IMG/VR virus record: IMGVR_UViG_3300045988_063953
Source: a virus
Reading direction: 5' to 3' (one strand)
Length of the DNA stretch: 64,000 nucleotides
Shown here: positions 14,322 to 59,648 of the stretch, piece after piece
How positions within the stretch are numbered: position 1 is the stretch's first letter
Layout of the letters: the number at the start of each line of letters is the position of its first letter
Made by a program: the position numbers and the translations under genes
Notes under the pieces: model-generated
What the model saw: the letters and a program-made list of their open reading frames with translations, nothing else
Told to the model about the DNA's origin: nothing
The model's database searches: none

Positions 14322-15551
14322 ATGAAAAGAACACCTAACACAATTAGTCTTACAAAGGAATATATAGAAAGTAAAGTTTCACAAGAACTTATTATTTCTA
14401 AATATTTAGATATTCCTATTGAAGTAATACAAGAGTGTATTACTAAAAATACTCTTATTAAATCTGTATTTCGTGATGATGATGTTACAGGTAGTATGGG
14501 TATTCAATATAATGTGAAAGGTAGGTTAAAAGTTCGAGATTTTGGTGGTTTTGGCTTTTTTGAAGATGTTTATGGAGTAGTAGCTTATGTATTAAGTATT
14601 GCTTATGAACGTAAAATAGAAACTTCAAGGAAAGAAGATTTTTATTTTGTTCTTAAACATATTGCTTATACTTTTAGTGATATTATTGATGGTAAGGTTG
14701 TAGACCCTAACGTTGATGCTCTTATTGCTCACGCTCTGCATAAAGCTAAAACTAAGAAAGCAATTATCGAAGTAGTTCCTCGTAGTTGGACTAATAAAGA
14801 TAAAAATCTTTGGGCTAAATGGGGTGTATCTTTAGGTTATCTTAATACTCATTTTGTTATACCTGTTGAACAATATTATATCAATAGAGGAGTTGACACC
14901 AAACCAAAATATTATCATAAAGATAAAGACCCTTGTTATGCTTATATGCTTGGTCAAAATAGACAAGGTATTTATCTTATTAAACTTTATTTTCCTTTAA
15001 GAGATAGACATCATAATACTACTAAGTTTGTTACTAATTGTAATGTTCTTGAAGGTTTATATAACCTTGAACTTGATAATTATGATTATATTATTATTAC
15101 TAAAAGTAGTAAAGATAGACTTAGTATAGGTAGTCATTTATCTGCTCATCCCTTTTACGGGGGAGTGAGTGGCAAACTCAATATTGGAGTTATTAATCTA
15201 CCAAGTGAAAATTATAAACTTAAACAAAATGAATATGATTGGATAAAAAGAAAACTTAAAAATGATGGTATTATATTTAGTCTTTTAGATTTTGATGAAA
15301 CAGGTCGTCAAGGTGCTAAATATCTATATGATACTTATAACATTCCTTATATGTTTATAACTCGTGGAGAACTTGGACTTCCTGATTATGAATGTAAGGA
15401 TTTTGCTGAACTTTGTGAAAGATATACAGATAATGAAATTAATAATTTTATAAATGAAACTTTAACTTATGTCGAACTTAGATATAAAAGAGGGGATATG
15501 GGTAGTGCTGCCAGTATTGGCACAATGTATGACGATATGCTCCCGTATTGA
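14322..15551 (+). CDS. Toprim-like domain protein, putative DNA primase
   Basis: IIITKSSKDRLS ... LLDFDETGRQGAKYL resembles a Toprim DxD segment, but the conserved Glu is not obvious. Sits in the replication module. Confidence 0.45.
   Translation: MKRTPNTISLTKEYIESKVSQELIISKYLDIPIEVIQECITKNTLIKSVFRDDDVTGSMGIQYNVKGRLKVRDFGGFGFFEDVYGVVAYVLSIAYERKIETSRKEDFYFVLKHIAYTFSDIIDGKVVDPNVDALIAHALHKAKTKKAIIEVVPRSWTNKDKNLWAKWGVSLGYLNTHFVIPVEQYYINRGVDTKPKYYHKDKDPCYAYMLGQNRQGIYLIKLYFPLRDRHHNTTKFVTNCNVLEGLYNLELDNYDYIIITKSSKDRLSIGSHLSAHPFYGGVSGKLNIGVINLPSENYKLKQNEYDWIKRKLKNDGIIFSLLDFDETGRQGAKYLYDTYNIPYMFITRGELGLPDYECKDFAELCERYTDNEINNFINETLTYVELRYKRGDMGSAASIGTMYDDMLPY
15146..15165 (-). repeat. GC-rich motif copy C
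   Basis: tcatcccttttacgggggag. Inside the primase-like CDS, read as FYGG. Confidence 0.85.
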
Positions 15552-18007: not shown

Positions 18008-18022
18008 GGAGTGTTCCGATAC

Positions 18023-18042
18023 CTCCCCCGTAAAAGATATGT
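18023..18042 (+). repeat. GC-rich motif copy D
   Basis: ctcccccgtaaaagatatgt. Intergenic, 16 nt after a stop codon. Confidence 0.85.
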
Positions 18043-20496: not shown

Positions 20497-20516
20497 ACAT
20501 TTTCTTTACGGGGGAG
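20497..20516 (-). repeat. GC-rich motif copy E
   Basis: acattttctttacgggggag. Intergenic, upstream of thyX. Confidence 0.85.
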
Positions 20517-20539
20517 GTAGTGTTAAACTTATAATTGAT

Positions 20540-25236: not shown

Positions 25237-25248
25237 GTTGCTCTATAA

Positions 25249-25268
25249 CTCCCCCGTAAAAGAAATGT
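25249..25268 (+). repeat. GC-rich motif copy F (consensus)
   Basis: ctcccccgtaaaagaaatgt. Intergenic, 13 nt after the DUF932-like stop. Confidence 0.9.
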
Positions 25269-27164: not shown

Positions 27165-27184
27165 ACCATTCCTTTACGGGGGAG
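27165..27184 (-). repeat. GC-rich motif copy G
   Basis: accattcctttacgggggag. Intergenic. ttcctttac (27169-27177) pairs with gtaaaggaa (27140-27148). Confidence 0.85.
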
Positions 27185-27191
27185 TTATAGT

Positions 27192-30100
27192 TTATCTCTT
27201 TATACTATCATAAATATCTTTAGCAAAGCCAATACCATTACCAGTCATTTTATAATAATGATTATCATCTGAAATATGAACCATATTATCATATTGTCTG
27301 TACAATGGTATACGACGTTTAATATAAACAGTAAGTTTATTTTGACCAGAGAATCGTCCACTATGATAGTTAGGGTCAAAATCATCACCTTCCATAAGCA
27401 TTTTTGCAACTTGTCCTAAAGAAGCAATAGCATCACTCATAGCACCAGTTGCTGCAACAGGTTGTGACCATAATTGTTTACCTTGAGCATAAACACCATA
27501 AGGAGTAAATTGCATAGACTCAGAAGCAAGACGGTCAGCTTCATATAAAGCAAGATTACCTACAAAACTTTCATCATCGTCATCAAGAATAGCTCTTGCA
27601 GCTACTGCCATACATATAGCAGAAAGGAATCCGCAAAGTTCTCCAAGAGAACGTCTAATGTTAGCTTTTTCATATTCAGGAAGAATATTATAAGTAGACT
27701 TAGCTTCAAGTAAGAAGTCAAAAGAAAGTTTGAAAACATTTTGAATACTCTCAAGAGCAGATGTTTGAGCATCACTCATTCCATTTTTATTTTTAACTGC
27801 TCTAAGATTAAGACTAAGGAAGTCTATAAGACTTATATAAGTACCTTTTTCAATAGTTTCTCTTTCTTCATTAAAATAACCATGTCGTCTAAAGCGTTTC
27901 ATAAATCCTGAAGGAATATGTTTATGATATTGCATAATAAGACTACCATACCAAGTTTTTTCAATTTGTGCTTGGTCAAGTTTACCATACATACCATGAA
28001 TCTTTTTATTAACACTAATAACACGACCTTTGAACCTACCTAAAATCTTTGCTCTTTCATCAACAGGAATCTCACTCATAAGACTATCATCTTTGAAACC
28101 AAGATAACCATCTTCTGCAAGAGTAAATTGACTCATAAGAGTAGGATGTTCTTCATCATTATTGAACTCTTCTTTAGCACGTTTGACAGCGTCATTATAA
28201 TTCTTTCTCCAAAGGTCTTTTTCTTCCTTAGAAAGATATTTAATTGCAAACTCTGAACTAAGGTCTTTACGATAACGAACAATTTCCTTTTTAGTATCAG
28301 GGTCAGAAAGTTCTTTTGCTCTAAGTTCTGCAAACTCTTTACGATGTTTATCATCAAGAAGTTTCATAAGTTCAGCATCAGCCAAATCTTTAATATGATT
28401 ATCAAGAGTTTTTGTGATATATTTTGGTTCACCTGCTACAAGACCATATTTAGGATTCTCAAATAGTCTATGACTATAAGCCATACTGAACATAGCACCA
28501 TTCTGCATAAAATGTTCACCAATAGCTTGTGGAGTAAACATAGCATCACGAAGTCTTTGAACAGCTTCTTCACCTTTAGCTACTTTAACAGTACCATTAA
28601 GTTCATCATAATCTACTACAGCAAGATATTTAACAAGAGCATCAGCAGTACTTGTAGACTTATCAGAATAAACATCTTTCATAAAGCTAAGAGCATTAGC
28701 TATCCAATACTTTTTACCCATAGCCCAATCCTTTGAAGTAAAGTATTGTTTAGCAAATTGTTCACCAAGTATTTGGGTTTCACCCATAGTAATATTAGCA
28801 ATACCACCTTTAATATTACCCATCATATAAATATTAGAAGTAATATTTTGAGCAAAAGCAGCAGCCTTAGTAAACTTTTTATTCTTATCTTTATATTGGT
28901 CATAAATAAGACGTCTTACCCAATTAACATATTGAGCATGAATATTATTATCAGTAACCTTTTCATAACCATCAGCTGTATCAAGTGTTTTACTAAGATG
29001 TCCACTACCAAATTTTTGTTGATAAACTTTATAATCTTTAAGCATTTCTTCTCCATAATAAAGCATTAGCTTTTGGTCTTGAACTGCATTAAAGTGTCCA
29101 GCCTTAGTAATAAAGTTATTCATAACTTCCCACCAATTACGTTCTGCAAGGTCATTATGTTCTTTCTGACGAGCCTCTTCATATTCAGCTTTACGCTTAT
29201 TATAAGCGTCAATATCTACGTTATATTTATCAATATCACCTCCATAATCTTCAATATTAGGTTCAACTTCATCAAATTTAACACCATCTTTGGCTCTAAG
29301 TCTTTGAAGCATTGGCATATCCATAGTTCTATCATTAGCAAAAGTAATATCACTATCATTATAGAACTCAGTATCACCAGTATCTGCACTAACATAACCA
29401 AGAAACTTTCCACCTTCTTTAAGAATACGTTTACCAGAAGTAGGTTGCTCTTTCATCATAACAGGCATACTACCATCACGAATAAAACGTCTTGAAGATT
29501 CAGTTTGAGCTAATGCTTCAAGAGTATCACCAAATTTATCTCTAATCTTTTTCTCTACTTCATTAAGATGAACATCACTATCAAAACCACTACCTTTACG
29601 ATAATTCTTATATAGGTCACCACCTTTATAATTAGGATTTCTCATATCAGGAGAACCGTCAAGGTCACCATTACTATCACGACCGTCTTTAGGAGTACGC
29701 TCAGTATTCTTAAAAGAAGGAACCCATTGTCCATCAAATCGTGCAATATTAGGATTAGGTTTACTTTCAGTCCAACATTCAAGAGGAACTACAGCTTGTT
29801 TGTAAGGGTCATAAATATGATTAGCATCATACCATTCTTGGAATGCTTCTTTACCCTCAGCTTGTTTCTCTTGAAAAACTCTATAATAATGTTCTGTCTT
29901 ATCAGAAACAACAAGTTCTTTAAGAGCTTTAAGACCTTCAGTTTTGTTCTTATCAGTAAACTTATCTTTGACACTATCTTTAGGTTTAATGCTACCATAG
30001 AGATAACTATTAGGTTGAATCTTAACAGTACCATCATCGTTGATAATCATTTCACCATCTTTATCTAATGCTATTTCAGTATTAGCATCATACCACGCTT

Positions 30101-33100
30101 TATACCATTCTTCTCCTAAAACTTCAGCCTTAGCTTTAGCCCATTTGTTCATAGTATCAAAACGTTCTTGGTCAATCTTAGAATCTACATTATCTTTAAT
30201 AAACTTGAATACTTCTTTTCTATTAGTAGCACCCTTCTTTTTAGTAGTATCTCTGAGTTCACTATAAAGTTTTTCAAGTTTATGTAAATCATCAATACTA
30301 AGAGTGTCAGTTCTAACGGATTTTGTATGAGAGTTATAAACCTTTTGTAGAATCTCATTAATCTTCCAAACAATATCATTATATTCTTTAGTAACAACAC
30401 CATCAGAAGTCATACCTTTATAAAAATCAGCAGTATAAACTTCATTACCATCATTACCGTTACGAATAAGTTTTCTTTGAGAAAGACCTGTATTCTGAGA
30501 ATAATCATAATAAGCTTTTTGAAGAGCTTTAATATGTTCTACTTGTTCAGGAGTAAGTTTGCTTCCATCAACAACACCTTTATTATCGAGAATATCATGT
30601 TTAATAGCAAGACTTCTAATATAATCACGAGTCTTATTTCTACCATTATTACTTGTTCCTTTAGATACTTTTTTAAGAGCATCACCTACTTCTTCCCAAA
30701 AACTTTCTCCATATACATAACGAGCATTATGAGCAAGCCATTCTTTAGCCTTAACATATTCATCTTTCTTCATCAATTCAGAAAGAGGAACAGTAAGTTC
30801 ACCAGCAGCATTTCTTTCCTCATATGCTTTAATAGTATCAAGATTACGTTTAAGTTCTTCATCAAAACCAAACTTAGAATCATATTTATAATACTTAGCA
30901 TTGAGTTCTTGCATACGCTTAACATATTCTCTCAGTGCAGCACGGTGAACTCCCCCGTAAAGGAGATAACGTTTGTAACCCTCTAAATCAGTTTCTTTAT
31001 CAGGTACACGTTCCTCCATATCCATAAGAGGGTCAGTAGCAAGACGATTATCTCCATAAAGTAGTTTATGAATTTCATCTTCTACTTGTTTGAGTTCTTT
31101 TTCCCAATGCTCAGAAAGATTACCTTGAGAATCAATATGATCTCTAATTTCAAATTGACGTTCTTTAAGTTGTTTGTAATGACTAAAGATATATCTATGA
31201 CCTATAAAGTTAGGGTCTGTTTCTTTAGGCTGAGTAGCAGCAAATGGGTCAACCGCACCTCTAAATGGGTCATTAGGGTCTTCATAAACTTTAGCTTTAC
31301 CTATACCATCTTGTAGAAGAGCCTCTTCAATTCTAAGTTTCTCAGTATAATAATCTTGTCTAAGTTCCTGTTCAAAATGTTCAGCTTCAAAAGCATCAAG
31401 TTTATGTTTAGCAAGAAGATATTCAACATGCTTTTCAGCACCTTGTGCTTTAAGGTTTTGCATATTGTTAAGAAGTTCAACAAAAGTCTTTCTTAAATCA
31501 TCATTATAATCTTGTCTTAAACGAGTATTTTCGTCAACAATCTTATTCATATCTATAGTAAGACCTTTTTCACGAGCTTCTTTCTCAACTTCTCTCTTAA
31601 ACTTATTAAACTCTCTGACACGTTCTTTGGTAACCATTTCAGCACTTCTGATATTCTCCATAACGTGCTTTGTTATAATCTGAACAATAGGATTAGTACT
31701 TTCTTGTAAATCATTAAACCAAGCCTCGAAAGTATTACTACTATGATAACCATCAAAAACAGTAAGAATATCCTGTATAATATAAGGATTATTACTTAGC
31801 TTTTTAAGATATTCATTACCAAAGTTTTTAAGTGCTCTATCAAGTTTATTATTAGAAGACAATTCTTTTATTCTATCTTGAATAGTTTCAAGATAATATT
31901 TAAGATTCTCATCTTCTGCATTAACATCAAGATTAGAATACTCAGCAAACTTTCTAATAAGAGCCTTAGCTGTAAGAAGAGTTTTAAGGAACTTATCTCT
32001 TTCATCAATATCATTTGCAATAACATCAATTACTTGAGGGTCATCAATACTAAGATATTTACCTGTTTTAGTATTAGTGGTAAAATAATCAAAGTTATGA
32101 AGAATATCCTTAACAGTACTATCAACAAATTCAGCAGTAATTCTAACAGTACCACCAATATTATCTTTAGCTGCATTAGGATTATTAGTACCAGTAAGTT
32201 CTTTATACAAAGCCTTTGCTTTAACTCCACTTTCAAAACCTGCTTTAGCAACAAAATTAAAAGATTGTACACCTTGCTGAGCAGCTTCTTCATCAAGAGC
32301 TGATTGTCTTACTTCATCAGGCTTTTCTTGAACATCTTCTGTAACAATATAAAGAGGATAATTAGTAATATCTTTACCATTATCTCTTACAAAGTCTTGA
32401 AGTTTCTTAATTGCAGTTCTTTTACTAATATTAGTAATACCATCAACTTTATCATTAACATTATCATATTTGAGATAGCGTGCGTAGTCTGTGAAAGGTG
32501 CTTTGGCAATGGTGTAACCCATTGGCAAAGATACGCTTGATTTGCCATCAATGCTACGTTCTGTGCTTATGATTTGCTTTACTCCATTAGTAGTACTATT
32601 GGACTTAATATAACGTTCCAAAGCCAAATTTGAAATCCACAAGATTTTTCCATCAGCACCATTATGAACACCAAACCAATCATTAATCTGACGTTTGATA
32701 CTATCAAAAGCACCAACTTCGTTAGGCTTAGGATTGTTCAAATCAAATGGTATATTTTCAACAGCAATACTCTTAGTACCTTTAGTTATGTAATCTGTTG
32801 GTGTAACTTGCTTTGTAGCTTTAAGACGATTCTCAAATTGTTCACTCCATTCATGACTCCAAATAACATCTGCCTTACCAGTGAAATCTTTAATAGCTTC
32901 CCAATAAAATCTTTTATTAGGAAATTTATTATTTTCAGCATTTGCGCTAATATCACTTTGTTCATTAGCTTCAAGTTTATTAAGAGGAATCAAGAAAATA
33001 TCTTTTCCGTTATGAGCATCATAAATCTTATAAAGAACAGGTTCAGCTTTACCATTTTCCTTTAATCGGACATATTTATTGAACATTGGATTTCCATCTT

Positions 33101-36100
33101 CATCAAAATCACTTATATTATACTTTTCAAGTAATTCTTTCTGATTAATAGAAACACGTTTCATGCCATAATAACTATAACCTAATTCAGACTTCTTATC
33201 TACCTTATCAATCTTTCTTGTAGGAATAGCACGAAGAGTAGGATTACTTCTTAAAAATCTTTCTTCTAAACTATTTATAGCACTTGCTTCAAATGTTTTA
33301 TCCATACCTCTAAATTGGTCATTAACTTCTTGAGTAAAACCAATTCCGTCAAGAATACTACCATTATCAGTTCTGTCATTGAATAGAGTACTATTCTTAA
33401 TAACTTTACTTACACCACCACGACGCATCTTAAAGCCATCAACAACAAAAGCATATTTGATAATATCAATAGCTGTTGCTGCAAGTAATGGATTATTGTT
33501 ATCAAGAAGTTTTTCAAAACTATTATAAACAGTTTCAATGTTATCACTATTCTCAATAAAACTAATAGTATGCTTACCAATACGTCCTTTGAATGTATTA
33601 TGAGTAGAAGCTCTAAGATACTTAGTAACAAGACCATCACTAAATCTACTTTGAACCCAAAGAACCTTTTGTGCAGGACTAAGAGTAAGAAATTGTCTAA
33701 CTTCTTCTATAGTAGGATGATTAGCATCTTTAACGTCAAATGGTACTTTATTACCATCAGCATCTTCTACAAGACTTTGAGCATCTCTATTATAACCAAA
33801 TATTCTTTGAGTTTCTTCATAAGCATCATCGACCATCAGATTATCTGTAACAGCAGGTTGTAAACCAAACTCTTCAGAATAACTCATTGGGAATTTAATA
33901 GAAGAAACATTACTATACATACTACCAAGAACATAGTTTTGATAATCTCTGTAAGTCTGTTCTGTCATTACTTTACTACCTGTAAAGTTCTCAGCAAGAT
34001 GAGTTATAATACTTCTAAATCTATCACTTTGTGTAGCAAAAAGAAGTCTATTAACTTTAATAGAAGGTGCAGTAGCATATCTCAAGAAAGCATCAAGAGT
34101 AGGATAAGAAGATTTTACATCACCTTTGTAAGACATATAATCATCAATAGAACCAGACACTCCCGGATATACACTTTCAATAAAGTTTACACCATCTACG
34201 TTAAGAAGAATACCATTATCTGTATGATTATGTCTATCAATCAAAGTATGAATATCATCAAATACTTTATTTGTAGCAAATATACTTTGTTTAGCACCAA
34301 ACTTATCTGGATTACTTACACGAGCAAGGTCACCAATGTTTTGTGCAAGAGCATTAAGTTTATTGAACTGAAGTATAGTTACAAGGTCAAATACAAGAGA
34401 ATCAGCATTGTTACTTTCTTTTACGGGGGAGGTACCAAAAACTCCCTTTTCTTTAATTCTATCACCAAGAAGTTTAGTATCCAAAGGAACATCACTTAAA
34501 AAACTATGGTCAAGAGAAATATTATCTTTAATACCAAATAGTTTAGCAAGGCTCTTTTGAACATCACCATTCTTATTCAGTTCTTCTATTACTTTATCAA
34601 TAGGAGTAAACTTATCAACTTTAATATCTAAAGCCTTAGCAATATCCTTAATAGCAGCATGAATAGGATTATAATTACCAGAAACATAAATAGATTTATT
34701 TGCATTATAAGCATCTACAATTCGAGTAACACCTGGTTGCATAATAAAAGCAACAGCTGTTTCAAAATCAAGTCCAACATCAGGAAACGTTTTGAATACA
34801 GCAAAGGTATAATCATTCTCATTAGGAATGGCATCCTCTTTAATAGCATCAAGAATATGAGCAGTAGTCTGAGAACTATAAGCAGTAATAATCTTACCTG
34901 CAATATTTTTATTATTCTTAGACCAACCTAATTTATCAACTGTAAGAGTAATAGTACCTTTATCTGTATCAATAACTGCCATATCACCAAAAGAATCTGT
35001 TACAGTCTTAATATCATACTTAGCTAAAGGAAGTACAACTTTGAATTGAGCAGACTTATGTATAGTAGGTTTTACAGTATTACAAACAGAACAGAAAGTA
35101 TCACGAGTTACACTAAATGCTTTAAGTTTAGCACCAGACATAGCATCATCTTGATACTCAGCTTGGTCAATAACATTATAAGGAGTTCTATTTTGACGAG
35201 CAATTTGAGCAGGAGTTCCAGCATAAATAGCATTACGAGCTTTAATCAAATCATCAAAGTTAGAACGAGAAAGATTTTCTTCAAGACTATCTTCATGAGA
35301 AAGAATAGCTTTCATACTATCAAGCATTTTATTTTGACGAGCACGTTTAGTATTCTCTCTGATAATCTTATCTTTATTTTGTTCAGACCATTCATCTCTA
35401 CTTAGAAGACCATGTTCTATAGCCCAATTATTATGATTAAATTCTTTATCTTCTAATAAACTTTTATCTTCTACATGATCTTCAACATAGTCATTATAAG
35501 ATTTATTAGCTACTTCAATATAAGGAACTTTTCTTATAATACCTTCTTCATCAATAAAAGTATTATACTGAATACCATAAACAGAGTCAATATCAAAGTC
35601 AGAACCTGTCTGAGAAACCCAAGCATCAGGAACTACAATAGTAGAACCTAAAGCATCATCAGTAAAACCTACAACCTTAAACTTACAAACAGATTGTTTA
35701 CCTTCAGTAGGAATACGATAACCAAGAATTTCATCAAGACCTTCAGCTTGAAGTTCTTTAAGCAAATCTTCATCACTCTTAAAACTACCGTCATCATTAA
35801 TTCTTTTAAAACCAAAGTTAGCTGCAGGAAGCATTACTTCAATATAATCTGTATAATTACCATTTTTATCAGAATGATATCGAAGACTATGACTATAAGC
35901 ATAAGACTTTACAGACTCACGAATAGCCTTAAAACCAATATTAGTAATCTGAGCAGCATGAAAACCTGGAAGTTTCTGTCTTGTAATACCATTATTAAAC
36001 ATAGCTTGAGCAATATTTTCAAGTTTAGTTGAAACATTACTCATAAACAATGGCATACGAGTTAATGGAGTATTTCCAATTCTCTCTTCATCTTGAAGAG

Positions 36101-39100: not shown

Positions 39101-40625
39101 AAGAATTAGCAATAGAAATAAGTTCTTGAAGATTAGCTTTCTCATTACCTTTACCTTTATTAAGACGAACATAATTAGAAATAGAATCTTTGCTTAGTGT
39201 AGGAATAAGTGAGTGAATTACAGCAGCTACTTTATCAATAGCTTCATATTCTTTAGCTGCATCACGAACAACATTCTGTCCGTTAACAACCTTATAATTA
39301 CTATTAACATCAAAACTTAGTTCACGAAGACCAGTTCTCAAAGAATACTCTTCTGCGTTAATAATAGAATGTCTAAGACCATTAAGAAACTCGAAACGTA
39401 AAGCAGTATCTTTATCAATATTTCTATTGTTATTAAACAAAGTAGCTTTATCTCCATCAAATAAAACTTCTTGTTTACTAATAACAGTTTTACTGAAAGT
39501 AGAATACAATTCACAAGCAAGACTAAAGTCTTTATAAATATCTTCATAAAGTGTAATTAGTCCACTAAGTTCTTTATGCTTTTGAGCTAAAGCTTTAATA
39601 CTTTCAGCCATAGTAGTAATATTAGTATAATCAATATCACCACCATATAATACAGAAAAGATTTCATTAGCACTATGAAAATCTTGAACACCAAGCGGAT
39701 TAGAAGTGTCATTCATACGAGTATGAACGTCACCTTCTGTAGATGTTAACTTAGGAATAGTACTAAGATATATATTAAGTTTATCACCAATATGTTTTTG
39801 GAAAGTACTATAAGCACCTGAATGTTCAGTATTAGCAATAAACTCATCACGATAATCATCGTTCTCTTTGTCTTCTTTATCAGCATCATTTACACTATCT
39901 TCATCAGCTGCTTCTTCAGCATTGAGTTCATCATTGTTTTCTTTAGGGAACTTAAACATAGCAAGTCTATTATCTCTAAGAGCTTCTTCAAACAATGCTT
40001 TAGCTAAAGTAACATTAGGCTTTCCATCAACTCTGCTACGAGCAATAACTTCATTAAATAGAGCATAAAGATTTTTATCTTGAGTAGATACTTCATCAGA
40101 ATTAAAAATATCATCAAGATTACGAATACCTTTCTTAAACTCAAGAAAAGCCTCTTCTCTACTAAGACCTTTAATAGCTGCAATTCTATCAATAAGATTT
40201 GCTTTAACATTGTTCTTAGCCTTGTTAATAACAAACTCTTTTCTCTTAGCACTGTCTTTAATAGCACGAGCTTCATCAGATGAAGCAGCAACTAACATTT
40301 GATTACTAACAAAACGTTTAGCAAAGTTTCTTGCAACAACATCTGTGTAACCAAATGTAATAACTGAAGTATCAGTTTCTTTTTTACGAGCAGTAACATT
40401 ACCATCAGGATGTAAAAAATAATGATATTCAAGTGCTTCTTTAGCAAAATCGTTAACATCAAGTTTTTTACCATCATGAGTTTCCTCATACCACTTACTA
40501 AACTCTCTTGTAGGTTGTTTATTTGTACCTACAGCCTCACTATAACAAGCACTAAATAGAGCATCATTATTGCCTACTAACTTGCGAAGTGAATGAAGAG
40601 TTCCTACATTAATAAAACAATCCAT
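27192..40625 (-). CDS. giant virion-associated protein containing a crAss-type RNA polymerase-like DxDxD centre
   Basis: Uninterrupted 4477-aa ORF. GSDFDIDSVYG (DFDID encoded at 35586-35600) matches the metal-binding motif described for two-barrel virion RNAPs of crAss-like phages. Confidence 0.75.
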   Translation of the reverse strand: MDCFINVGTLHSLRKLVGNNDALFSACYSEAVGTNKQPTREFSKWYEETHDGKKLDVNDFAKEALEYHYFLHPDGNVTARKKETDTSVITFGYTDVVARNFAKRFVSNQMLVAASSDEARAIKDSAKRKEFVINKAKNNVKANLIDRIAAIKGLSREEAFLEFKKGIRNLDDIFNSDEVSTQDKNLYALFNEVIARSRVDGKPNVTLAKALFEEALRDNRLAMFKFPKENNDELNAEEAADEDSVNDADKEDKENDDYRDEFIANTEHSGAYSTFQKHIGDKLNIYLSTIPKLTSTEGDVHTRMNDTSNPLGVQDFHSANEIFSVLYGGDIDYTNITTMAESIKALAQKHKELSGLITLYEDIYKDFSLACELYSTFSKTVISKQEVLFDGDKATLFNNNRNIDKDTALRFEFLNGLRHSIINAEEYSLRTGLRELSFDVNSNYKVVNGQNVVRDAAKEYEAIDKVAAVIHSLIPTLSKDSISNYVRLNKGKGNEKANLQELISIANSLVAEAESVKANYIARENNIREAYSVNKELDASKQYGNPNRQDIWDKYSHGHYPTADDYRDVSGAREQEYLTPRAITLSNELANKLSPYSTINVELNSYNVHGNQSSNVINSSWLTGFIRTVQSKEALENFGKLMFQSNQYDYSNILVEKTDANGKVINKGLFRLVYGKYQPTEYAHRLAKVKLFDGAANESSDSAATYANMSKADYIATEVYHFFEAENEEAILGKDTEVADYFLRTPSDASRNFVITLPRYSTKSLFRLKNPTEANKKIDAKINEIVEIPAGEEGIYDTLTPVIADKKRALYDLTKGNLRSRTIKVSNINTEVEETLGRKPQKGDTITVTYHYTNNDGVTTKYVLEGTYGDKNNNGIVLEKPILKGVLSHDTYGVKEIGDDLLSAIHEQLRQTMVNSGELEMIIDKTSPVYQQYKAVFMQELTNAKTAFDKIFEEDGEGGYKAKLNPNQTFANYHQKGGKFYVESDGRRYLVGNVFRSAKFQLNGRNYLGELFAHADNSGNSVEPVFDFFYGGATKAITTNPTTGAVVLNEAQEEAVDAAISEYIKDFVFDSTNRLNEFENVLKKENLSPERISDFAINYNLMYMNFDDIFEGDMKFYKDTQTALKRAKEVQGSGVPYGIFNAVRDNSKVTKDEIVTSPLSKPFTKINADGTKEDYFVRQYDGFRGVTIKNTIRTQKEVLANGVVAKALAKAYRKEGLSEKDALTKANAFLKGYEDTTVNDAQSYITFNEWVRRVTARGQFNKYKPLIEKILDESQELNPEDIKEFIQVQKNFYYDLHYNAELGVVAPRQIKNAEFVLVPRLIKDTQLEQVAKLMDKFGIDQLNTEETSKAGKANILTLWDNNGEIDSKIIEDLDRESGFKSDFCKAVKSPEACQIFDYNHLYTQQETPQHINAENKAAIQIMKKIVDNIDKDSPLYAYKETFMDCHAANVYDDFVQLMQDCGLELDEDGNLKLDEQGNPVGLDAEVFFEKLQAEAERQALDSNMMDFLTLQDEERIGNTPLTRMPLFMSNVSTKLENIAQAMFNNGITRQKLPGFHAAQITNIGFKAIRESVKSYAYSHSLRYHSDKNGNYTDYIEVMLPAANFGFKRINDDGSFKSDEDLLKELQAEGLDEILGYRIPTEGKQSVCKFKVVGFTDDALGSTIVVPDAWVSQTGSDFDIDSVYGIQYNTFIDEEGIIRKVPYIEVANKSYNDYVEDHVEDKSLLEDKEFNHNNWAIEHGLLSRDEWSEQNKDKIIRENTKRARQNKMLDSMKAILSHEDSLEENLSRSNFDDLIKARNAIYAGTPAQIARQNRTPYNVIDQAEYQDDAMSGAKLKAFSVTRDTFCSVCNTVKPTIHKSAQFKVVLPLAKYDIKTVTDSFGDMAVIDTDKGTITLTVDKLGWSKNNKNIAGKIITAYSSQTTAHILDAIKEDAIPNENDYTFAVFKTFPDVGLDFETAVAFIMQPGVTRIVDAYNANKSIYVSGNYNPIHAAIKDIAKALDIKVDKFTPIDKVIEELNKNGDVQKSLAKLFGIKDNISLDHSFLSDVPLDTKLLGDRIKEKGVFGTSPVKESNNADSLVFDLVTILQFNKLNALAQNIGDLARVSNPDKFGAKQSIFATNKVFDDIHTLIDRHNHTDNGILLNVDGVNFIESVYPGVSGSIDDYMSYKGDVKSSYPTLDAFLRYATAPSIKVNRLLFATQSDRFRSIITHLAENFTGSKVMTEQTYRDYQNYVLGSMYSNVSSIKFPMSYSEEFGLQPAVTDNLMVDDAYEETQRIFGYNRDAQSLVEDADGNKVPFDVKDANHPTIEEVRQFLTLSPAQKVLWVQSRFSDGLVTKYLRASTHNTFKGRIGKHTISFIENSDNIETVYNSFEKLLDNNNPLLAATAIDIIKYAFVVDGFKMRRGGVSKVIKNSTLFNDRTDNGSILDGIGFTQEVNDQFRGMDKTFEASAINSLEERFLRSNPTLRAIPTRKIDKVDKKSELGYSYYGMKRVSINQKELLEKYNISDFDEDGNPMFNKYVRLKENGKAEPVLYKIYDAHNGKDIFLIPLNKLEANEQSDISANAENNKFPNKRFYWEAIKDFTGKADVIWSHEWSEQFENRLKATKQVTPTDYITKGTKSIAVENIPFDLNNPKPNEVGAFDSIKRQINDWFGVHNGADGKILWISNLALERYIKSNSTTNGVKQIISTERSIDGKSSVSLPMGYTIAKAPFTDYARYLKYDNVNDKVDGITNISKRTAIKKLQDFVRDNGKDITNYPLYIVTEDVQEKPDEVRQSALDEEAAQQGVQSFNFVAKAGFESGVKAKALYKELTGTNNPNAAKDNIGGTVRITAEFVDSTVKDILHNFDYFTTNTKTGKYLSIDDPQVIDVIANDIDERDKFLKTLLTAKALIRKFAEYSNLDVNAEDENLKYYLETIQDRIKELSSNNKLDRALKNFGNEYLKKLSNNPYIIQDILTVFDGYHSSNTFEAWFNDLQESTNPIVQIITKHVMENIRSAEMVTKERVREFNKFKREVEKEAREKGLTIDMNKIVDENTRLRQDYNDDLRKTFVELLNNMQNLKAQGAEKHVEYLLAKHKLDAFEAEHFEQELRQDYYTEKLRIEEALLQDGIGKAKVYEDPNDPFRGAVDPFAATQPKETDPNFIGHRYIFSHYKQLKERQFEIRDHIDSQGNLSEHWEKELKQVEDEIHKLLYGDNRLATDPLMDMEERVPDKETDLEGYKRYLLYGGVHRAALREYVKRMQELNAKYYKYDSKFGFDEELKRNLDTIKAYEERNAAGELTVPLSELMKKDEYVKAKEWLAHNARYVYGESFWEEVGDALKKVSKGTSNNGRNKTRDYIRSLAIKHDILDNKGVVDGSKLTPEQVEHIKALQKAYYDYSQNTGLSQRKLIRNGNDGNEVYTADFYKGMTSDGVVTKEYNDIVWKINEILQKVYNSHTKSVRTDTLSIDDLHKLEKLYSELRDTTKKKGATNRKEVFKFIKDNVDSKIDQERFDTMNKWAKAKAEVLGEEWYKAWYDANTEIALDKDGEMIINDDGTVKIQPNSYLYGSIKPKDSVKDKFTDKNKTEGLKALKELVVSDKTEHYYRVFQEKQAEGKEAFQEWYDANHIYDPYKQAVVPLECWTESKPNPNIARFDGQWVPSFKNTERTPKDGRDSNGDLDGSPDMRNPNYKGGDLYKNYRKGSGFDSDVHLNEVEKKIRDKFGDTLEALAQTESSRRFIRDGSMPVMMKEQPTSGKRILKEGGKFLGYVSADTGDTEFYNDSDITFANDRTMDMPMLQRLRAKDGVKFDEVEPNIEDYGGDIDKYNVDIDAYNKRKAEYEEARQKEHNDLAERNWWEVMNNFITKAGHFNAVQDQKLMLYYGEEMLKDYKVYQQKFGSGHLSKTLDTADGYEKVTDNNIHAQYVNWVRRLIYDQYKDKNKKFTKAAAFAQNITSNIYMMGNIKGGIANITMGETQILGEQFAKQYFTSKDWAMGKKYWIANALSFMKDVYSDKSTSTADALVKYLAVVDYDELNGTVKVAKGEEAVQRLRDAMFTPQAIGEHFMQNGAMFSMAYSHRLFENPKYGLVAGEPKYITKTLDNHIKDLADAELMKLLDDKHRKEFAELRAKELSDPDTKKEIVRYRKDLSSEFAIKYLSKEEKDLWRKNYNDAVKRAKEEFNNDEEHPTLMSQFTLAEDGYLGFKDDSLMSEIPVDERAKILGRFKGRVISVNKKIHGMYGKLDQAQIEKTWYGSLIMQYHKHIPSGFMKRFRRHGYFNEERETIEKGTYISLIDFLSLNLRAVKNKNGMSDAQTSALESIQNVFKLSFDFLLEAKSTYNILPEYEKANIRRSLGELCGFLSAICMAVAARAILDDDDESFVGNLALYEADRLASESMQFTPYGVYAQGKQLWSQPVAATGAMSDAIASLGQVAKMLMEGDDFDPNYHSGRFSGQNKLTVYIKRRIPLYRQYDNMVHISDDNHYYKMTGNGIGFAKDIYDSIKR
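30950..30969 (+). repeat. GC-rich motif copy H
   Basis: ctcccccgtaaaggagataa. In the 4477-aa CDS, read as LYGG. Confidence 0.85.
34412..34431 (-). repeat. GC-rich motif copy I
   Basis: tactttcttttacgggggag. In the 4477-aa CDS, read as SPVK. Confidence 0.85.
37529..37548 (+). repeat. GC-rich motif copy J
   Basis: ctcccccgtaaaagaaatca. In the 4477-aa CDS, read as FYGG. Confidence 0.85.
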
Positions 40626-40645
40626 AAATTTATATATTTAATTAT

Positions 40646-40695
40646 TAAAAGAAATAAACCTCAGAAGAATAATTTTATAATCATTACTTCTGAGG
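40646..40695 (-). terminator. intrinsic terminator between the 2371-aa and 4477-aa genes
   Basis: Perfect 10-bp stem acctcagaag / cttctgaggt. On the - strand it is followed by ttatttctttt. Confidence 0.7.
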
Positions 40696-40709
40696 TCATT
40701 AGTATTTAC

Positions 40710-43700
40710 TTATTTACAATATGTTTGAAGTTCACCATTGTCTATTTGTTCTCTCATCTTAGCCCTATTCTCAATAGGAATACTATCAATAAAAGACTTA
40801 ATAGTTGGAGTTCTAATGTCTTCGTCAATATTTGAACGCATAACATCATCAAAGTCAACATCCATATCAAATTCATTATCAAAAGAATCTTCTGAATCAT
40901 AAACTTTAGGAGGTTCTTCTTTAGTTGTTTCAGGAGAAGTAGTTTCTTCTGTAATTTCCTTTACGGGGGAGGTATCAGAACTCTCATCTTTGAAATCTAA
41001 TGTACCCTCTTTTGCAACTTCTTTTTTAGTAGTATTAAGAATATCACCGAGAGCAACTATTTCTTTCTCATAAAGAGAACCTTTACGAACATCCCAACCG
41101 AATATCTTGCAGAGTGTATCTACTATCTTTTGGAACAACGACTTCTTTTTAGAACCTTTATCTACTTTAGCATCAATAGCGTTAAGTCTATCAATAAGTT
41201 CTTTAGACGTTAAACTTTCAACTAAAAACTCTTCAAGAGCAATAGTATCATTTTTATCTATCTTTTCATAACGTCTAATACCTTTACCTTCTTCAAGACC
41301 ATCACGCTTATTAGCTTCAATAAATTCATCTCTAATAGCACGAACTTGCTCAATATATTTAGCATTACCATCTTGTGCAAGAATACGATGTAGTTGTTCA
41401 TGAATAAGTTTACGAAGAGCCTCTTGTTTAGTATCAGGATTTCTAAGCATATCAAGCCACTTTGTACCTACCGTAATAGTATCTTTAGTGACATTATATA
41501 AAGCATTAGTTCTTTCATATCCTGCTCTACTATTTAAGTCTTTGTCAAAGATAATAGTTTTTGGTAGAATAGAATAACCATTTATAGGTTTTAACAAGTT
41601 TTTTACACTATTACCAAGTATCATAGTAGCAATAGCATTACCTTGATGTTCTCTTTTATCTCCTTTTTCAAGAAGTTGAACAACTTTTTCTACTCTTGCA
41701 TCACCACTTGTTTTTTGCTCAGCAGTATTACCATTAATAGTTTCTGGAGTTTTAACAGCATCGAAACGTACATAAAGAGTTTGGTTACCTACTTGAGTTT
41801 TATCATTACGTCTTGTAAAGTTAGTTTCTTTACCATTAATATCTTTAGTCTTTTTGAGATTAATCTTAACAAGATTATTGTCAATAAGAAAATCTTTATA
41901 AGACTTAGCACTAACAACAGTAGGTTTACCTGTTTTACTATTAGGAATAGTAACAGTAAATTCACCTTTTTCATTACGTGACATAAAACCTGTAAGAGGA
42001 TAGTTTTCATTTATAGCATTTTGCATTGCGTCAAAATGAATACCAATAGCACTTCTATCAACAAATTGTTCAAACATTTTGATAGCAGCATCTTTATTTT
42101 CTCCATTCTTATCAAAGATACCTTTAGCTTCTCCTTGACGAACAGCAGTTTGATATTGTCTTTCACCTCTATAAATACTATTTCCAATACTTATAGAAAA
42201 TGGTTGACCATCAATAGCAATATTAAAACCATTACCTTTAGAAAAATCTCTAATAGTGATACCATTATCAGACATAAATCCTCTACTAATGGTTCTATTA
42301 TAATTACTAAAGACTTTATTAACAAAATCTCTAAGTCTTTCATAAGAACCTTCTTTATGAGCATAAAAATCTTCAAGAAGATTAGCAAATTCAGTCTTAA
42401 TAGCTTTCTGAATTTTAACTACATCTTTACTAAGACGTTTATCTCCAAAGCGTACAGGATAAGCTCTAACAAGTTGAGGAACACCGTTTTGGTCTTTAAT
42501 CATACCAAAGGTATTACCCGGAGTACCCGGAAAGTCAACTTGAGAACCACCATCACCATATACTATACCAGAAGTTCTTTCACCATAAGCATTTTGACCA
42601 GTAGGAATAAATCCAAATTCAAATCTATCCATAAGAGAATCAGCAACAGCATCTTTAACTGTATTAGCTTGTTTCTCAACTTCAGGATTAAGATATTCTT
42701 CATTACTCTCAACTTGCTTTGTTAGAATACCACTTGTAACATAATCTACAGTAGCTTCATATCCTTGTGGGAACTTAGCAATAGCACTAATAGCATTATA
42801 ACTATTAAGAAGTTTATCAAAGTAATCATCAATAGAATTACTAAGAACATCTGCAAGTTTATATTCTAAATCAGTACCAGCTACTTGATTATAAGACTTG
42901 GCAATATAACGATATAGTTTAGCAAAACCTTCTGCGACAATATCAATATCTGTTGGGTCGACTATAACACCTTTATCAACAAGAGCTTTAACTTCTTTAT
43001 TATTAAGAAACTTTTTATAGAGTTTCTTTCTATCCTTTTCAGTAAGAGTTTTATCAAATGCTAAACTATAAAGTATATCATTAACTTCAGAAGCATCTTC
43101 GTTTTCTTCATAAACCCAACGTTTAAGAGTATCTTTAAGAGTAGAATCTCCGTTATTGACATTAATATCATAAATAACACCATCGTTTTTTACAGTATAA
43201 GCATCAATCTCTTTAGATACAATAGGAACAGGAAGAGCACCAATTAAAGTACCATTAGTTCTAATGTGAAGTTTATTATTTCTAACTTCAATAGAAACTC
43301 TATCTCCAACTTTAACATTATCCAATGCTTCAAGCAGTTCATTAAGTTCATCAGTTCTATCTTCTTTTTGATAAAGTTCAACAAGCTGTTTGATATTAAG
43401 ACGATGTCTATCAGCATTAAGAGTTTGAATAATCTCTTTTTTATTATCGAAAATAGTTTCTGCGTCTAAAGCTGCTTCATCAACAATTCGATAAAGATAA
43501 TCTTTATTCTTACTCTTATCAAGAATATATTGTTTGAGATAACCATAAATGCCTGTAGCAGTATCAGGAGTTTCACTTACTTCATTGCACCAATTAAGTA
43601 AATCTTGGAAACTAAAATAATATCTTTCAACACCATTTTTATCTTTTCTAACAATACCATCTCTATCAGAAAGATAAGCGTCAAATAAAGCATCTGCTGC

Positions 43701-46700
43701 TTTGCTATAAACATCAGTAAACTTTTTATGCTTTTTACCATCAACTACTTCTTCTTCAATAGCAGACTGTCTATTCTGAGCATCAATAACACCTGCAATA
43801 GCATCAAGTTTATTATTACGTTTAGTAAGAAGTTTATTATATAATGGATTCTTTCTAATATCATTAACAATAGCTTTAAGAATATCCTCTTCCACACCTT
43901 GAGCTTTATAAGTATTATAAAGCTCATCAGCAAGTTCATCCATAGTAATCTTATCTTTATGAGCTTTAATAGTAGGAATAACAGCTCCATTAATTACTAC
44001 TTTAGCATCATTAAGAATCTCTTTACCAGAATCAGCAACAGCATCTTCATTAGAGTTTTCTGATACCTCCCCCGTATAAGAAATGTGAGATTGCTTACCA
44101 GTATCTCCTTTAAGATGTTTTTCTAACCATTGTTTTTGAATATCATTAAGTTGTATCCCACGAACTTCATCATTACCAATATCATCACCTTTTTGATAAG
44201 CAAAGAAAGTTCCGTTATCATTAACAACTATTTCCCCAACAACAGGTTCACCGTTAATATTACCTTTAATAGGTTTCTTAATCTTATATTTGAAAACTCC
44301 AAAGTCAGTTTCATTCTTACTAATAGTATCAATAAGAGCAGTTTCTTGTTGTTCTTTAATACTCTTATCTCCTTGAGGAGCTTCTTCAGAACTTTGTTCT
44401 TCTACAGGAGCATCACTTTTTTTACCTATAAGACCTTTACTAACAACTTCAAAATCACCATTATCTTTACGTTTAACAATAGGATTTTGTTTAACTTCAG
44501 CATTATTGTCAATAACCGAAGCATCTTTTTCAACATCAAATAAAGCAGTGTTATTAAACAAATGTTCAACACCTACTTTACCTTTAAGTTGAATTTCTTC
44601 AGTACCATCTTCTTTAGCTACAGTTTCTATGTTAGTTTTACCAGTAGAATCAATATCACCTTTATCATTAAAACGAATACTTTTAGCAGGAGTTTCTTCT
44701 GTTTTTGGCTCGGTCGGTTCAGTGGTTGGCTCGGTGCTTTCCTCGCTGCTTACTTCGTCCGTAGTGCCGTTCTTTTGGCTTTCCTCGCTTTCAGTTTCAT
44801 TTGTCGATTGATTATTCGACTTTTCATTTTCAGCCGTTTCTGAGGGATTTTGATTTGTGGTAGTATTTTTCTTCTTTTGCTCCTCCTTTTGGAACTGCAA
44901 TATCTCTTCTAAGTCCAACACATTTGTCAAACTTTCATAAAGTTGATTATTGTTAGGATTAGCAAAATTATAAACAGTAATTGCTTCATCAAACTTTTCT
45001 TTATCTTCTTTGTCATAAAGTTCAGTAATCTTATCAAACTCTTCATTATCTCCAATACGTCTACTTGCAAGAGCAGCTTCAAGACTTTCTCTACCATATT
45101 TACCAAGAATATCTTTGAAAGTATCAGTAGCTTTAGCAAGTTTAGCTCTACGCATTTCATTAAGAGTATTGTTAAGTACTCCTATTTCTGTTTTAAGTTC
45201 ACTAACAGAACTAACTACTTGAGAACGATTTTGATTAATTTGATAACCATATTGATAAGCTCTATTGTAAGACTCACCTATGGCATCTTCTTTGCTGCCA
45301 TACTCTTTAAGTTCTTCAAGAATGTCATTAGTACTACGATTGAGTTTATTATAATCAGTAGCAAATTGTTTTGCATCTTCTTCTGCTAATTGAAGAGTTT
45401 TATCATCAAGTTCAAATATATTTTGAACACCTCTGAAATCACCTTTGTCAATAGCATCTGCAATAGCTTTTTCTTCTTCTTGAAGAGCAAGTCTTCCAGC
45501 TTCATCATCTTTAGTTAAAAGACTTTGTCTTACAAGATTAGTCTTATTTCTTGCAAAGAATATTGGAAGCATACTTCTAACATCATTCTTATCATAAAGA
45601 CTTTCATGTAAAGACTTAATTTGTTTATCAATACTTTCGAGAGCTAATTGACCACCAATAGTAGGATTATCTTTAAGAGATTGTTCTACTTCTGCTTTAC
45701 TCTGATATAAGTCAGTTAAAGCCCAAACATTAGCACGAGCTTCAAGTGCTCTTTCATAATCTTCAACTTCACCACTAAGTTTACCATCTTCTTTAGCTTT
45801 AGCTATAAGAGCACGATAAATATTCAGTTCTTCATTACGAGCAGTTTCTAAAGTTTTAATACCAAGACGATTATATGCATTATTTGTAGCGATCGTTTGA
45901 AGCATTTCAAAAGGAATAACTTTACCATCTTCAACAGCATCAGCAGAAATACGATTAAGATGAGTAATTTCGTCATTATATTCTTTTTCTACTTGTGCTA
46001 TTTTATCAACAGCTTGTTGTTGAAAAGTATGACTATCTTCTTCACTAATAATACCTTTAGCTACCATAACTTGTCTGACATTATCATCAGACATAAATTC
46101 TTTAAGCAAAGAACTATTACCATTGTTCATTGCCTCTAAAGACATATCAGTAAGAGTTTTGTTAATTACTTGTTGCTTAAAAGTAGCTTGTTCAGCTTTA
46201 GTAAGTTCTCTATCATCAGAAGTATCAAAAGGATTACGAGCTTGTTCAATTCTTTTAAGTTGTTGTCCAAGTAATTGAAGTTTAGCATCTCTACCTTGAA
46301 TTTCGGCAATCTTACGTTTAACTTCTGGAAGTTCATCATTCATAGACCAAGAAGGAGCATTACTATTATTTTCTCCTGTAGTAGCATTTTCACCTGTTTT
46401 AGCCTTATCATTCTTATGTTCAAGGTTATATTTTAGCTGATTAAGTTTACTACCACCTACTTCAAATACAACACCACCAAGAACACCCCAAAACATACTC
46501 TCCCAAAGTTGAGGACTTTGAGCATAACTTTTAAGACGAGAATCAAAAGAACTACCGTTAGAAGTACCTAATAATACTCTACCAGTATCCATAGCCTCAA
46601 GCTGAGAAATAGTATTAACACCTTCTTCAAGACCTTCACCTAATTGAGCACCAACAGCAAGTTTACTCTTAAAAAGAAAATCAGTAGCATGGTCTTTAGT

Positions 46701-59616: not shown

Positions 59617-59648
59617 ATTATTAACATTAAAAATTAGATTTATTCTAA

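Follow-up and report, generated by a model that had tools for sequence, protein, structure and literature searches.

Why should copies of one short motif recur at nearly regular intervals, and in alternating orientation, across the two giant genes of a virus? The question is raised by IMG/VR virus record IMGVR_UViG_3300045988_063953, a stretch of 64,000 nucleotides (nt) referred to here as the window, in which the copies between positions 27165 and 44086 lie 3.1-3.8 kb apart. The preliminary description of this DNA took this alternating spacing as the unit and proposed a structural or topological role, such as loop anchors or phased nicks. We find that the basic pattern is a different one: two independent series, one per strand, each evenly spaced at about 7.2 kb.

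Two evenly spaced series of one motif

The motif is an asymmetric element of about 24 nt, CAYTTnCYTT-TACGGGGGAG-nTA, present in 17 copies in the window. Eight lie on the + strand (7185, 15156, 20507, 27175, 34422, 40962, 52125 and 59688) and nine on the - strand (2167, 10401, 18023, 25249, 30950, 37529, 44067, 52393 and 59649). Aligned copies are conserved over about 22-24 positions. The core TACGGGGGAG is exact in 14 copies and has one mismatch in three, giving 17 occurrences where 0.27 would be expected with up to one mismatch allowed; for the 8-mer ACGGGGGA the count is 14 against an expected 0.04. A scan with a 34-nt weight matrix scores the 17 sites at 26-49 bits and the rest of the window below 8 bits, with a top shuffle score of 14.

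Within the reported stretch the copies stand at 27175 (+), 30950 (-), 34422 (+), 37529 (-), 40962 (+) and 44067 (-). The gaps of 3775, 3472, 3107, 3433 and 3105 bp agree within 2 bp with those first given, and the 24-nt extents, from 27165-27188 to 44063-44086, reproduce the original coordinates exactly. Under uniform placement of 17 points in 64 kb, five gaps so alike have P=5e-4. Orientation alternates in 15 of 16 neighbouring pairs (P=2.6e-4). Most of the other gaps are also as first described (5018, 3216, 4755, 2867, 2484, 4742, 1926, 8058 and 7256 bp), and to these we add two short ones, of 268 bp (52125+/52393-) and 39 bp (59649-/59688+). Set against a uniform null, the spacing of all 17 copies is non-random, as the preliminary description had expected, but only moderately regular (coefficient of variation (CV) 0.59, P=0.014), because the 268- and 39-bp gaps stand beside gaps of 7.3 and 8.1 kb.

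These two long gaps had been taken for doubled units, with degenerate copies to be sought near 48 and 56 kb. No degenerate copy is present at either place, the weight-matrix scan giving nothing above 8 bits outside the 17 sites, and the same long gaps occur at the homologous places of the related genome cr8_1. The idea of a lost copy is therefore dropped: the two "double" gaps are ordinary same-strand periods, in which the opposite-strand partner lies 268 or 39 bp off.

Taken alone, the - series has gaps of 8234, 7622, 7226, 5701, 6579, 6538, 8326 and 7256 bp (CV 0.124), and none of 200000 simulations was as even. The + series, with gaps of 7971, 5351, 6668, 7247, 6540, 11163 and 7563 bp, has a CV of 0.243 (P ~6e-4). 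We compared these series with the alternating unit by a random-offset test, in which distances within each strand are kept and one series is displaced as a whole by a random amount. Alternation of at least the observed strength arises readily, with P=0.53 in the window and P=0.3-0.99 in five other genomes. Together with the higher CV of the combined set, this rules out an alternating lattice of ~3.4 kb as the primary rule. Alternation is a by-product, because two evenly spaced series of similar period must interleave. Only in the giant genes do the two series run nearly half a period out of phase; in the remainder of the window the distance between opposite-strand sites varies from 39 bp to 5 kb. 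The enrichment and spacing statistics rule out a chance origin of the copies. An assembly artefact is likewise excluded, as ORFs (open reading frames) run unbroken through the copies and orthologous copies occur in independently assembled genomes.

The motif in other crAss-like genomes

On nucleotide and protein comparison, the window falls within the family Intestiviridae of the Crassvirales, with the Obtuvirinae genomes cr271_1, cr8_1 and ctcc615 as its nearest relatives (primase identity 66-72%). A scan of IMG/VR detected the motif in 69 stretches, many of them from contigs of ~90 kb, and six complete or nearly complete genomes were assembled from a phage collection for comparison. In five Intestiviridae genomes the top-enriched 10-mers, found de novo, are variants of the motif. 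The variant is TCTTC-TACGGGGGAGC in cr271_1, TC-TACGGGGGAGGT in ctcc615, CCTTT-TACGGGGCGG and TACGGGGGGG in cr8_1, CCATCCTC-YACGGGGRGT in p-crAssphage (Carjivirus communis, BK010471; 31 copies, 13 + and 18 -) and CTCCTY-TAYGGGGGAA in the cultured crAss002 (28-29 copies, 16 + and 12 -). The part that is invariant in all lineages of the six genomes is Y-A-Y-GGGG, preceded by a pyrimidine tract.

The motif is absent from crAss001 (Steigviridae; MH675552, first 100 kb searched). The top-enriched word of that genome is CTTCTGGAG, with the related words CTTCCTGAG and CTTCTTGAG; it has ~43 copies on both strands, is ~18-fold enriched and shows no long flanking conservation. It might be an analogous signal of the Steigviridae or something unrelated.

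The per-strand analysis was chosen after inspecting the window. Because p-crAssphage and crAss002 have almost no orthologous sites in common with it, they provide independent validation. Evenness on single strands is seen in cr271_1 (+, P=0.0017), cr8_1 (+, P=1e-4; -, P=0.015), p-crAssphage (+, P=0.001; -, P<5e-5) and crAss002 (+, P=1e-4). The periodicity that the preliminary description suggested looking for in relatives is thus replicated in independent genomes as non-random spacing, in the form of per-strand evenness. The shortest distance between same-strand copies ranges from 2.0 to 7.1 kb, where random placement gives medians of 0.2-2 kb (Fisher P=3e-19, all genomes); the largest same-strand gaps are shorter than random (Fisher P=9e-8), and the evenness is still significant when the null model excludes same-strand copies within 2 kb of each other (Fisher P=2.7e-8). 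Most series have a mean same-strand spacing of 5.4-7.8 kb; in three sparse ones the mean is 12.9-15.5 kb. The combined sets, with CVs of 0.59-0.71 across genomes, are much less even than the single-strand series. Selection keeps about one copy per 5-8 kb on each strand, with same-strand copies never closer than ~2 kb and rarely more than ~11 kb apart, and the motif is read in a strand-specific, directional way.

Copies on opposite strands may adjoin. Pairs closer than 500 bp number 16 against 8.6 expected and can be 27-124 bp apart; among those closer than 130 bp, 9 of 11 are divergent. One divergent pair lies upstream of an IHF-like gene in the window and recurs upstream of the orthologous gene in cr8_1 (37722-/37798+) and cr271_1 (31904-/31986+). 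Its copies (window 59645-59701; cr8_1 37722-37807; cr271_1 31904-31995) are 39-82 bp apart, and the IHF-like gene is the first of a long - strand operon. The pair forms an inverted repeat of ~60-100 bp, from which RNA transcribed off either strand could also fold into a hairpin. In p-crAssphage a divergent pair stands a few hundred base pairs upstream of each of two repL genes (28077-/28177+ for 28718-29272, and 95745-/95869+ for 96138-96794). The second of these genes lies where the forward strand starts, and its pair coincides with the origin that Ori-Finder placed in p-crAssphage (PMC10983915).

Selection on the DNA sequence

The 17 copies and the two giant genes of the window are as follows.

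2163..2186, - strand: motif copy, core TAAGGGGGAG with one mismatch, intergenic, 31.6 bits
7175..7198, + strand: motif copy in ORF 6997-7551, sense, encodes FTGE
10397..10420, - strand: motif copy, core TACGGGGGTG, in the SNF2-like helicase gene 9889-11313, antisense
15146..15169, + strand: motif copy in the DnaG-family primase gene 14322-15551, sense, encodes HPFYGG
18019..18042, - strand: motif copy, intergenic, directly past the stop of ORF 17651-18007
20497..20520, + strand: motif copy, intergenic, ~20 nt upstream of the ThyX gene 20540-21547
25245..25268, - strand: motif copy, intergenic, in the gap between the DUF932 gene and the dUTPase gene
27165..27188, + strand: motif copy directly past the stop codon of the giant RNA polymerase gene, first of the six in the reported stretch
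27192..40625, - strand: giant gene 1, 4477 amino acids, virion RNA polymerase homologue with DFDID at residue 1676
30946..30969, - strand: motif copy in giant gene 1, sense, encodes LLYGGV
34412..34435, + strand: motif copy in giant gene 1, antisense, encodes SPVKE
37525..37548, - strand: motif copy in giant gene 1, sense, encodes FFYGGA
40710..47825, - strand: giant gene 2, 2371 amino acids, homologue of an 'RNAP-associated protein fused to zincin protease' (RNAP, RNA polymerase)
40952..40975, + strand: motif copy in giant gene 2, antisense, encodes TSPVKE
44063..44086, - strand: motif copy in giant gene 2, sense, encodes YTGE, last of the six in the reported stretch
52115..52138, + strand: motif copy in ORF 51021-53021, antisense, left member of a convergent pair 268 bp apart
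52389..52412, - strand: motif copy in ORF 51021-53021, sense, right member of the convergent pair
59645..59668, - strand: motif copy, intergenic, ~30 nt upstream of the IHF-like gene 58936-59616, left member of a divergent pair 39 bp apart
59678..59701, + strand: motif copy, core TACAGGGGAG with one mismatch, 26 bits, right member of the divergent pair

Giant gene 1, which is similar to KP06_gp44 of p-crAssphage, has three sites inside it and one just past its stop codon; giant gene 2 has two inside. Four Obtuvirinae genomes have the sites of the RNA polymerase gene at the same alignment columns and in the same reading frames, although the proteins share only 38-61% identity, and the suggestion that the copies are something other than sporadic insertions is borne out. 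The site just past the stop codon is present in all four. The site encoding L/F-Y-G-G (37525..37548 in the window) occupies the same alignment column in 6/6 genomes from three subfamilies, and the antisense site encoding SPVKE (34412..34435) lies at column 2422 in the same frame in the window, cr271_1, cr8_1 and ctcc615. In cr8_1, where the motif has changed, SPVK is replaced by RPVK at this antisense site; the DNA signal therefore dictates the protein sequence.

Other sites are more mobile. The cr271_1 counterpart of 30946..30969 is ~11 alignment columns away in another reading frame (FTGEQ), and this site has turned over with its position retained. In giant gene 2 the sense site (44063..44086) is in the same frame in all four Obtuvirinae genomes; the antisense site (40952..40975) is elsewhere in cr8_1 and ctcc615, and cr271_1 has none. 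The copy with its core at 2167 has TACGGGGGAG in relatives that are ~90% identical, and cr271_1 site 90838 as its counterpart; its single mismatch is a recent mutation of a perfect copy. The variant core at 10397..10420 recurs at the homologous cr271_1 site 82808. ORF 6997-7551, which carries the copy at 7175..7198, is by position the counterpart of the cr271_1 uracil-DNA glycosylase gene. The YGG residues encoded at the primase copy are invariant or nearly so in 25 primase homologues.

Sense copies occupy all three reading frames. Between the ~90% identical relatives, the motif 24-mers are 96.5% conserved compared with 91.7% for their flanks. Of the 133 sites in the six genomes, 44 are intergenic where 11.7 would be expected (P=3.5e-15), and about two-thirds are intragenic, notably in the giant genes, which offer no intergenic space for more than 13 kb. 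The copies are thus placed between genes where there is room and are otherwise written into coding sequence, as in the giant genes. Orientation relative to local transcription is 70 sense and 63 antisense in the six genomes; among intergenic sites, a tally from the site lists and annotated gene strands gives 18 sense and 26 antisense. Gene orientation in the window changes from + (up to ~26.6 kb) to - (27.2 kb onward), and the - series is unaffected by this switch at 26-27 kb.

The two motif variants of cr8_1 (MT774384) differ in where they lie: TACGGGGCGG is mostly intergenic and TACGGGGGGG mostly coding, for example in YGGA codons. The YGGA site retains GGGGGGG while the motif changes elsewhere in the genome. 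This split suggests a recent shift of recognition specificity, with coding-constrained copies lagging behind. The concerted drift of the motif between lineages, in which coding copies lag, points to a phage-encoded recognition factor of drifting specificity; one such change is that from GGGGGAG to GGGGCGG in Fohxhuevirus.

No Rfam family matches at gathering score anywhere in the window. When 14 sites were folded as DNA, energies were -0.3 to -5.3 kcal/mol with mostly non-significant z-scores and no common structure, so that no conserved hairpin was found of the sort that marks single-strand initiation signals or N4-type promoters. Identity profiles against the ~90% identical relatives place no mosaic or recombination boundaries at the sites. 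The motif is a cis-acting DNA signal, and not a protein-coding, RNA-structure or, in the usual sense, transcription signal; on these sequence comparisons, its copies are functional DNA sites conserved in position.

Searches of the literature for the motif (as TACGGGGGAG, CCTCCACGGGG and other strings) and for nicks, motifs or promoters of crAss-like phages turned up nothing but primer sequences with no connection to it, most subscription journals lying outside their coverage. The motif is not mentioned in the 2024 genomic study of p-crAssphage (PMC10983915) or in the crAss002 paper (PMC8042965). We found no earlier account of an evenly spaced per-strand motif array in the searchable literature, although one may exist.

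A possible role in starting DNA synthesis

That the two orientations are independent, each covering the genome, argues for a directional, strand-specific process. An enzyme would either start at a site and move one way, or travel one way and read only the correctly oriented sites. The reading we tentatively favour, as a possibility, is that the sites are preferred start sites for primer or DNA synthesis, each unidirectional and each serving as a mini-origin or strong priming site. Either the DnaG-family primase of the phage or an initiator acting alongside that enzyme would recognize the C-rich strand, 5'-CYCCCCRTR-3', for which the candidate template forms are 5'-CTCCCCCGTAAAG-3' and 5'-CTCCCCCGTAAAGG-3'. 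It would begin a G-rich primer at the invariant A, pppA-Y-G-G-G-G..., and this primer would make an unusually stable hybrid in a genome of 30% G+C (the value for the window). Forks or displaced strands moving in one direction would be served by - copies and those moving in the other by + copies, which would explain the independent spacing of the two series. Divergent pairs at close range would be bidirectional starts; in keeping with this, 9 of the 11 opposite-strand pairs closer than 130 bp are divergent, and one of them, by a repL gene of p-crAssphage, coincides with the Ori-Finder origin.

The primases of T7 and T4 use the templates 5'-GTC-3' and 5'-GTT-3' and make primers that begin pppAC. 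The invariant Y-A-Y-GGGG seems to resemble these sites in being compatible with a template 5'-CCCCRTR-3' and a primer pppAYGGGG, a likeness of sequence only. The primase is assigned to the DnaG family (PHROG, E=1e-60), its homologue in crAss002 being gp57, and the gene is found in all motif-bearing genomes; crAss001, which is without the motif, has only a weak 24% partial match to it. By our own reading of 25 homologues, the Toprim acidic residues E244-G245 and D323-x-D325 are invariant. The N-terminus of the protein can be aligned by eye with the DnaG zinc-binding domain (SVFRDDD...NKSMG...RDFGG), with the Cys/His ligands lost. The primase gene 14322-15551 itself carries a motif copy, which encodes HP(L/F)YGG.

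Several points weigh seriously against such a role. Every Intestiviridae-specific replication gene tracks the motif equally well, so the link between motif and primase is weak. The AlphaFold model of the primase is poor (predicted local distance difference test 62.9, predicted template modelling score 0.42), and a Foldseek search with it against the PDB gave no match below E=0.6. Known primases of the DnaG and T7 type recognize 3 nt, at sites that occur every few hundred bases, whereas this motif is ~22 nt long and occurs every 5-8 kb. Priming would also leave about 12 conserved positions, upstream of the putative start, without an explanation. No base-skew shift and no AT-rich unwinding element was found beside the sites. 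Across the late genes of cr271_1 and p-crAssphage the sites are far sparser in one orientation than in the other, an imbalance for which start sites account via coding constraints only. A role in priming is proposed from sequence resemblance and context.

Alternative explanations

Instead of starting synthesis, the sites could be cut. Programmed single-strand nicks, made on both strands by a site-specific nickase of the phage, would leave staggered strands of ~7 kb that the ATP-dependent ligase would reseal; we consider this unlikely, though it is, with the Chi-like signal treated next, one of the main rivals. HNH and GIY-YIG nicking enzymes typically recognize asymmetric sites of 22-24 nt; the signal is also strand-specific, with same-strand copies staying apart. 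All motif-bearing genomes encode the ligase, with HNH genes near it in cr271_1, cr8_1 and crAss002, and a MobC-like relaxosome protein has been claimed beside it for p-crAssphage (PMC10983915). Group-conserved nick motifs inside and outside genes are a known phenomenon (PMC11780129). However, the nicked phages we are aware of have their motif on one strand, as does Rembedalsseter (PMC11780129), whereas here it is on both, and the copies in the tf-related group are clustered and not evenly spread (PMC11780129). The 11 opposite-strand pairs 27-124 bp apart would give staggered double-strand breaks. No nickase is common to the six genomes, the HNH gene of p-crAssphage being without a homologue in the others, and PhageTerm on crAss002 gave a single pac-type signal and not many termini (PMC8042965), which is weak evidence. 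Both RepL and the HNH endonuclease were rejected as a universal recognition protein, since they are not conserved among the motif-bearing genomes.

A signal that is oriented, with strands spaced independently, would also suit a translocating helicase-nuclease that reads it directionally, as Chi is read. The enzyme could be the phage's own (a Dda/RecD-like helicase with a PD-(D/E)XK exonuclease) or the host's; it would be switched from degradation to recombination, and even spacing on two strands would limit the DNA lost per break. At about one site per 5-8 kb in each orientation, the frequency is similar in order of magnitude to that of Chi in E. coli. The helicase of the phage matches the Dda-like helicase and exonuclease V families, RecT and Gam are also encoded, and relatives have a PD-(D/E)XK nuclease in addition. 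Even so, we judge this quite unlikely. Known Chi sites have 5-8 nt, with a sequence dictated by the host enzyme, whereas this motif is ~22 nt and differs among related phages, and a lower limit on same-strand spacing is not predicted. Among the matches listed (at least 120 stretches from diverse bacteria), the long form is multi-copy in no bacterium, and a 16-nt pattern is only single-copy, at about the chance estimate.

The spacing might be partly a side effect, if the motif had a function of another kind and close direct repeats were deleted by the phage's RecT-type annealing or by replication slippage while inverted copies were tolerated. The strongest statistic is indeed the lack of close same-strand copies (Fisher P=3e-19), opposite-strand copies may adjoin, and RecT is conserved. 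Yet the evenness goes beyond the 2-kb exclusion null (Fisher P=2.7e-8), the maximum gaps are below random (Fisher P=9e-8), and the minimum same-strand gap in the window, 5.4-5.7 kb, is far past any plausible range of deletion avoidance. Sites in conserved coding sequence without intergenic space argue for selection on coverage, and the side effect has only a slim chance of being the explanation.

The loop anchors of the preliminary description would be architectural sites, bound by an IHF/HU-like or other bending protein for packaging or ejection. Two IHF-like genes are conserved, with a conserved site pair upstream of one, and 22-24 bp is the footprint size of such proteins. A protein that binds double-stranded DNA predicts an even combined set, however, and the combined CV of 0.59-0.71 is less even than that of single strands; copies 39 bp apart alongside gaps of 8 kb make this role improbable.

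Least probable of all are transcription signals, promoters or terminators for the phage two-barrel RNA polymerase or a host polymerase: the layout is like that of T7-type promoters (~23 bp, asymmetric, with a G-rich start region), sites are enriched between genes, some copies lie 20-40 nt upstream of genes in sense (20507+, 59649-) and no early-promoter motif is known for crAss-like virion RNA polymerases (10.1101/2020.03.07.982082), but the sense and antisense counts (70 and 63; 18 and 26 between genes), the conservation of sites within giant ORFs in both orientations and the indifference of the spacing to the gene-strand switch at 26-27 kb speak against them.

Gene content of the window

The + strand module encodes a Dda-like helicase, a DNA polymerase, the DnaG-family primase, the ATP-dependent ligase and ThyX, together with a Mu Gam-like protein, a DUF932 protein and a dUTPase. 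Sequence searches of Pfam, NCBIfam and the PDB with the primase and neighbouring unknown proteins gave nothing useful except DUF932/TIGR03299. The DNA polymerase homologue of the window, 7564-9879, is a single ORF, unlike the cr271_1 gene (L071 33336-36033; record 83336-86033), which is annotated as two ORFs with ~390 bp between them; the split could reflect an intron, an insertion, a recoding event or an assembly error.

The 815-residue ORF 61223-63670 and several small ORFs (59994-61219; 1-4000) have no tblastn match in the six compared genomes, and their neighbours are conserved. This set probably comprises a hypervariable tail or host-range region along with early genes specific to the lineage. 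A Logan contig of 89,217 bp (P0001; cluster of 216 member sequences) encodes a primase 96% identical to that of the window. Public data therefore include a near-complete genome of this phage species, which could show the ~28 kb missing from the window.

Significance

crAss-like phages are the most abundant human gut viruses, and their replication, packaging and DNA maintenance are largely obscure. It is conceivable, and our tentative proposal, that Intestiviridae, including the prototypical crAssphage, carry 14-31 strand-specific sites per genome of ~90-100 kb that act as unidirectional synthesis starts or as staggered nicks on two strands, with a recognition protein that co-evolves with them. 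If true, this would be a mode of phage replication or genome organization without described precedent. Whatever its role, the motif is under strong selection within the coding sequence of a virion RNA polymerase across three subfamilies, and it offers a concrete cis-element for tests of priming, nicking, recombination or protein binding. Its signature, a lineage variant of Y-A-Y-GGGG spaced evenly on each strand, could aid the classification of Intestiviridae contigs and the search for the recognition protein.

Comparison with known dispersed signals

As far as the comparisons were run, the motif departs from the defining features of nick sites, Chi, uptake sequences and stoperators, while sharing several traits with each. 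To our knowledge, the nick motifs of T5, tf and phiKMV lie on one strand. Those of T5, tf/Rembedalsseter and phiKMV are, like this motif, short, asymmetric and over-represented, found group-wide despite little nucleotide similarity, both intra- and intergenic, and strand-specific (PMC11780129). They are ~9 nt long, whereas this motif is ~22-24 nt, lies on both strands and is even on each; the tf-related copies, moreover, gather toward one side of the genome (PMC11780129).

Chi, read by RecBCD or AddAB, and the FtsK-orienting polar sequences (KOPS) are likewise oriented, genome-wide signals that occur about once per several kilobases and are read by a travelling enzyme. They are 5-8 nt long, specified by the host and favoured in one orientation per replichore. 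In contrast, this motif is ~22 nt long, specific to phage lineages and present in both orientations in one region.

The uptake signal sequences of Haemophilus and DNA uptake sequences of Neisseria have cores of 10-12 nt with flanking conservation and are spaced more evenly than random. They are tolerated in genes in several frames and often form inverted pairs between genes. Over-representation, conserved flanks, even spacing, the use of several frames and inverted pairs are all shared with our motif. The uptake sequences, however, belong to bacterial chromosomes and are read by the competence machinery, and we know of no per-strand exclusion of close copies among them.

Priming signals provide a further parallel. 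The ColE2 origin is an asymmetric element of ~30 bp read by a dedicated Rep primase, and ssiA and ssiB of RSF1010 are paired hairpin signals on opposite strands that make up a bidirectional origin; both occur once per replicon. These systems and the T7 and T4 primase sites share with our proposal that directional starts of synthesis are set by the template sequence. The T7 and T4 sites, however, are frequent and only 3-5 nt long. The ssi signals are hairpins, unlike the motif, at which none is conserved, and we know of no genome-wide array of 14-31 sites of the ColE2 or RSF1010 type.

Cluster A mycobacteriophages have 20-30 dispersed, asymmetric stoperators of 13-14 bp, mostly between genes, which co-evolve with a phage binding protein. 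As dispersed, asymmetric, multi-copy phage sites they are similar to the motif described here. No immunity repressor turned up among the window proteins scanned, although no search aimed at repressors was made. Stoperators keep to one orientation with respect to transcription, and the protein that binds them is the lysogeny repressor; the Intestiviridae sites, in contrast, are divided into 70 sense and 63 antisense copies, lie within genes in two-thirds of cases and are evenly spaced on each strand.

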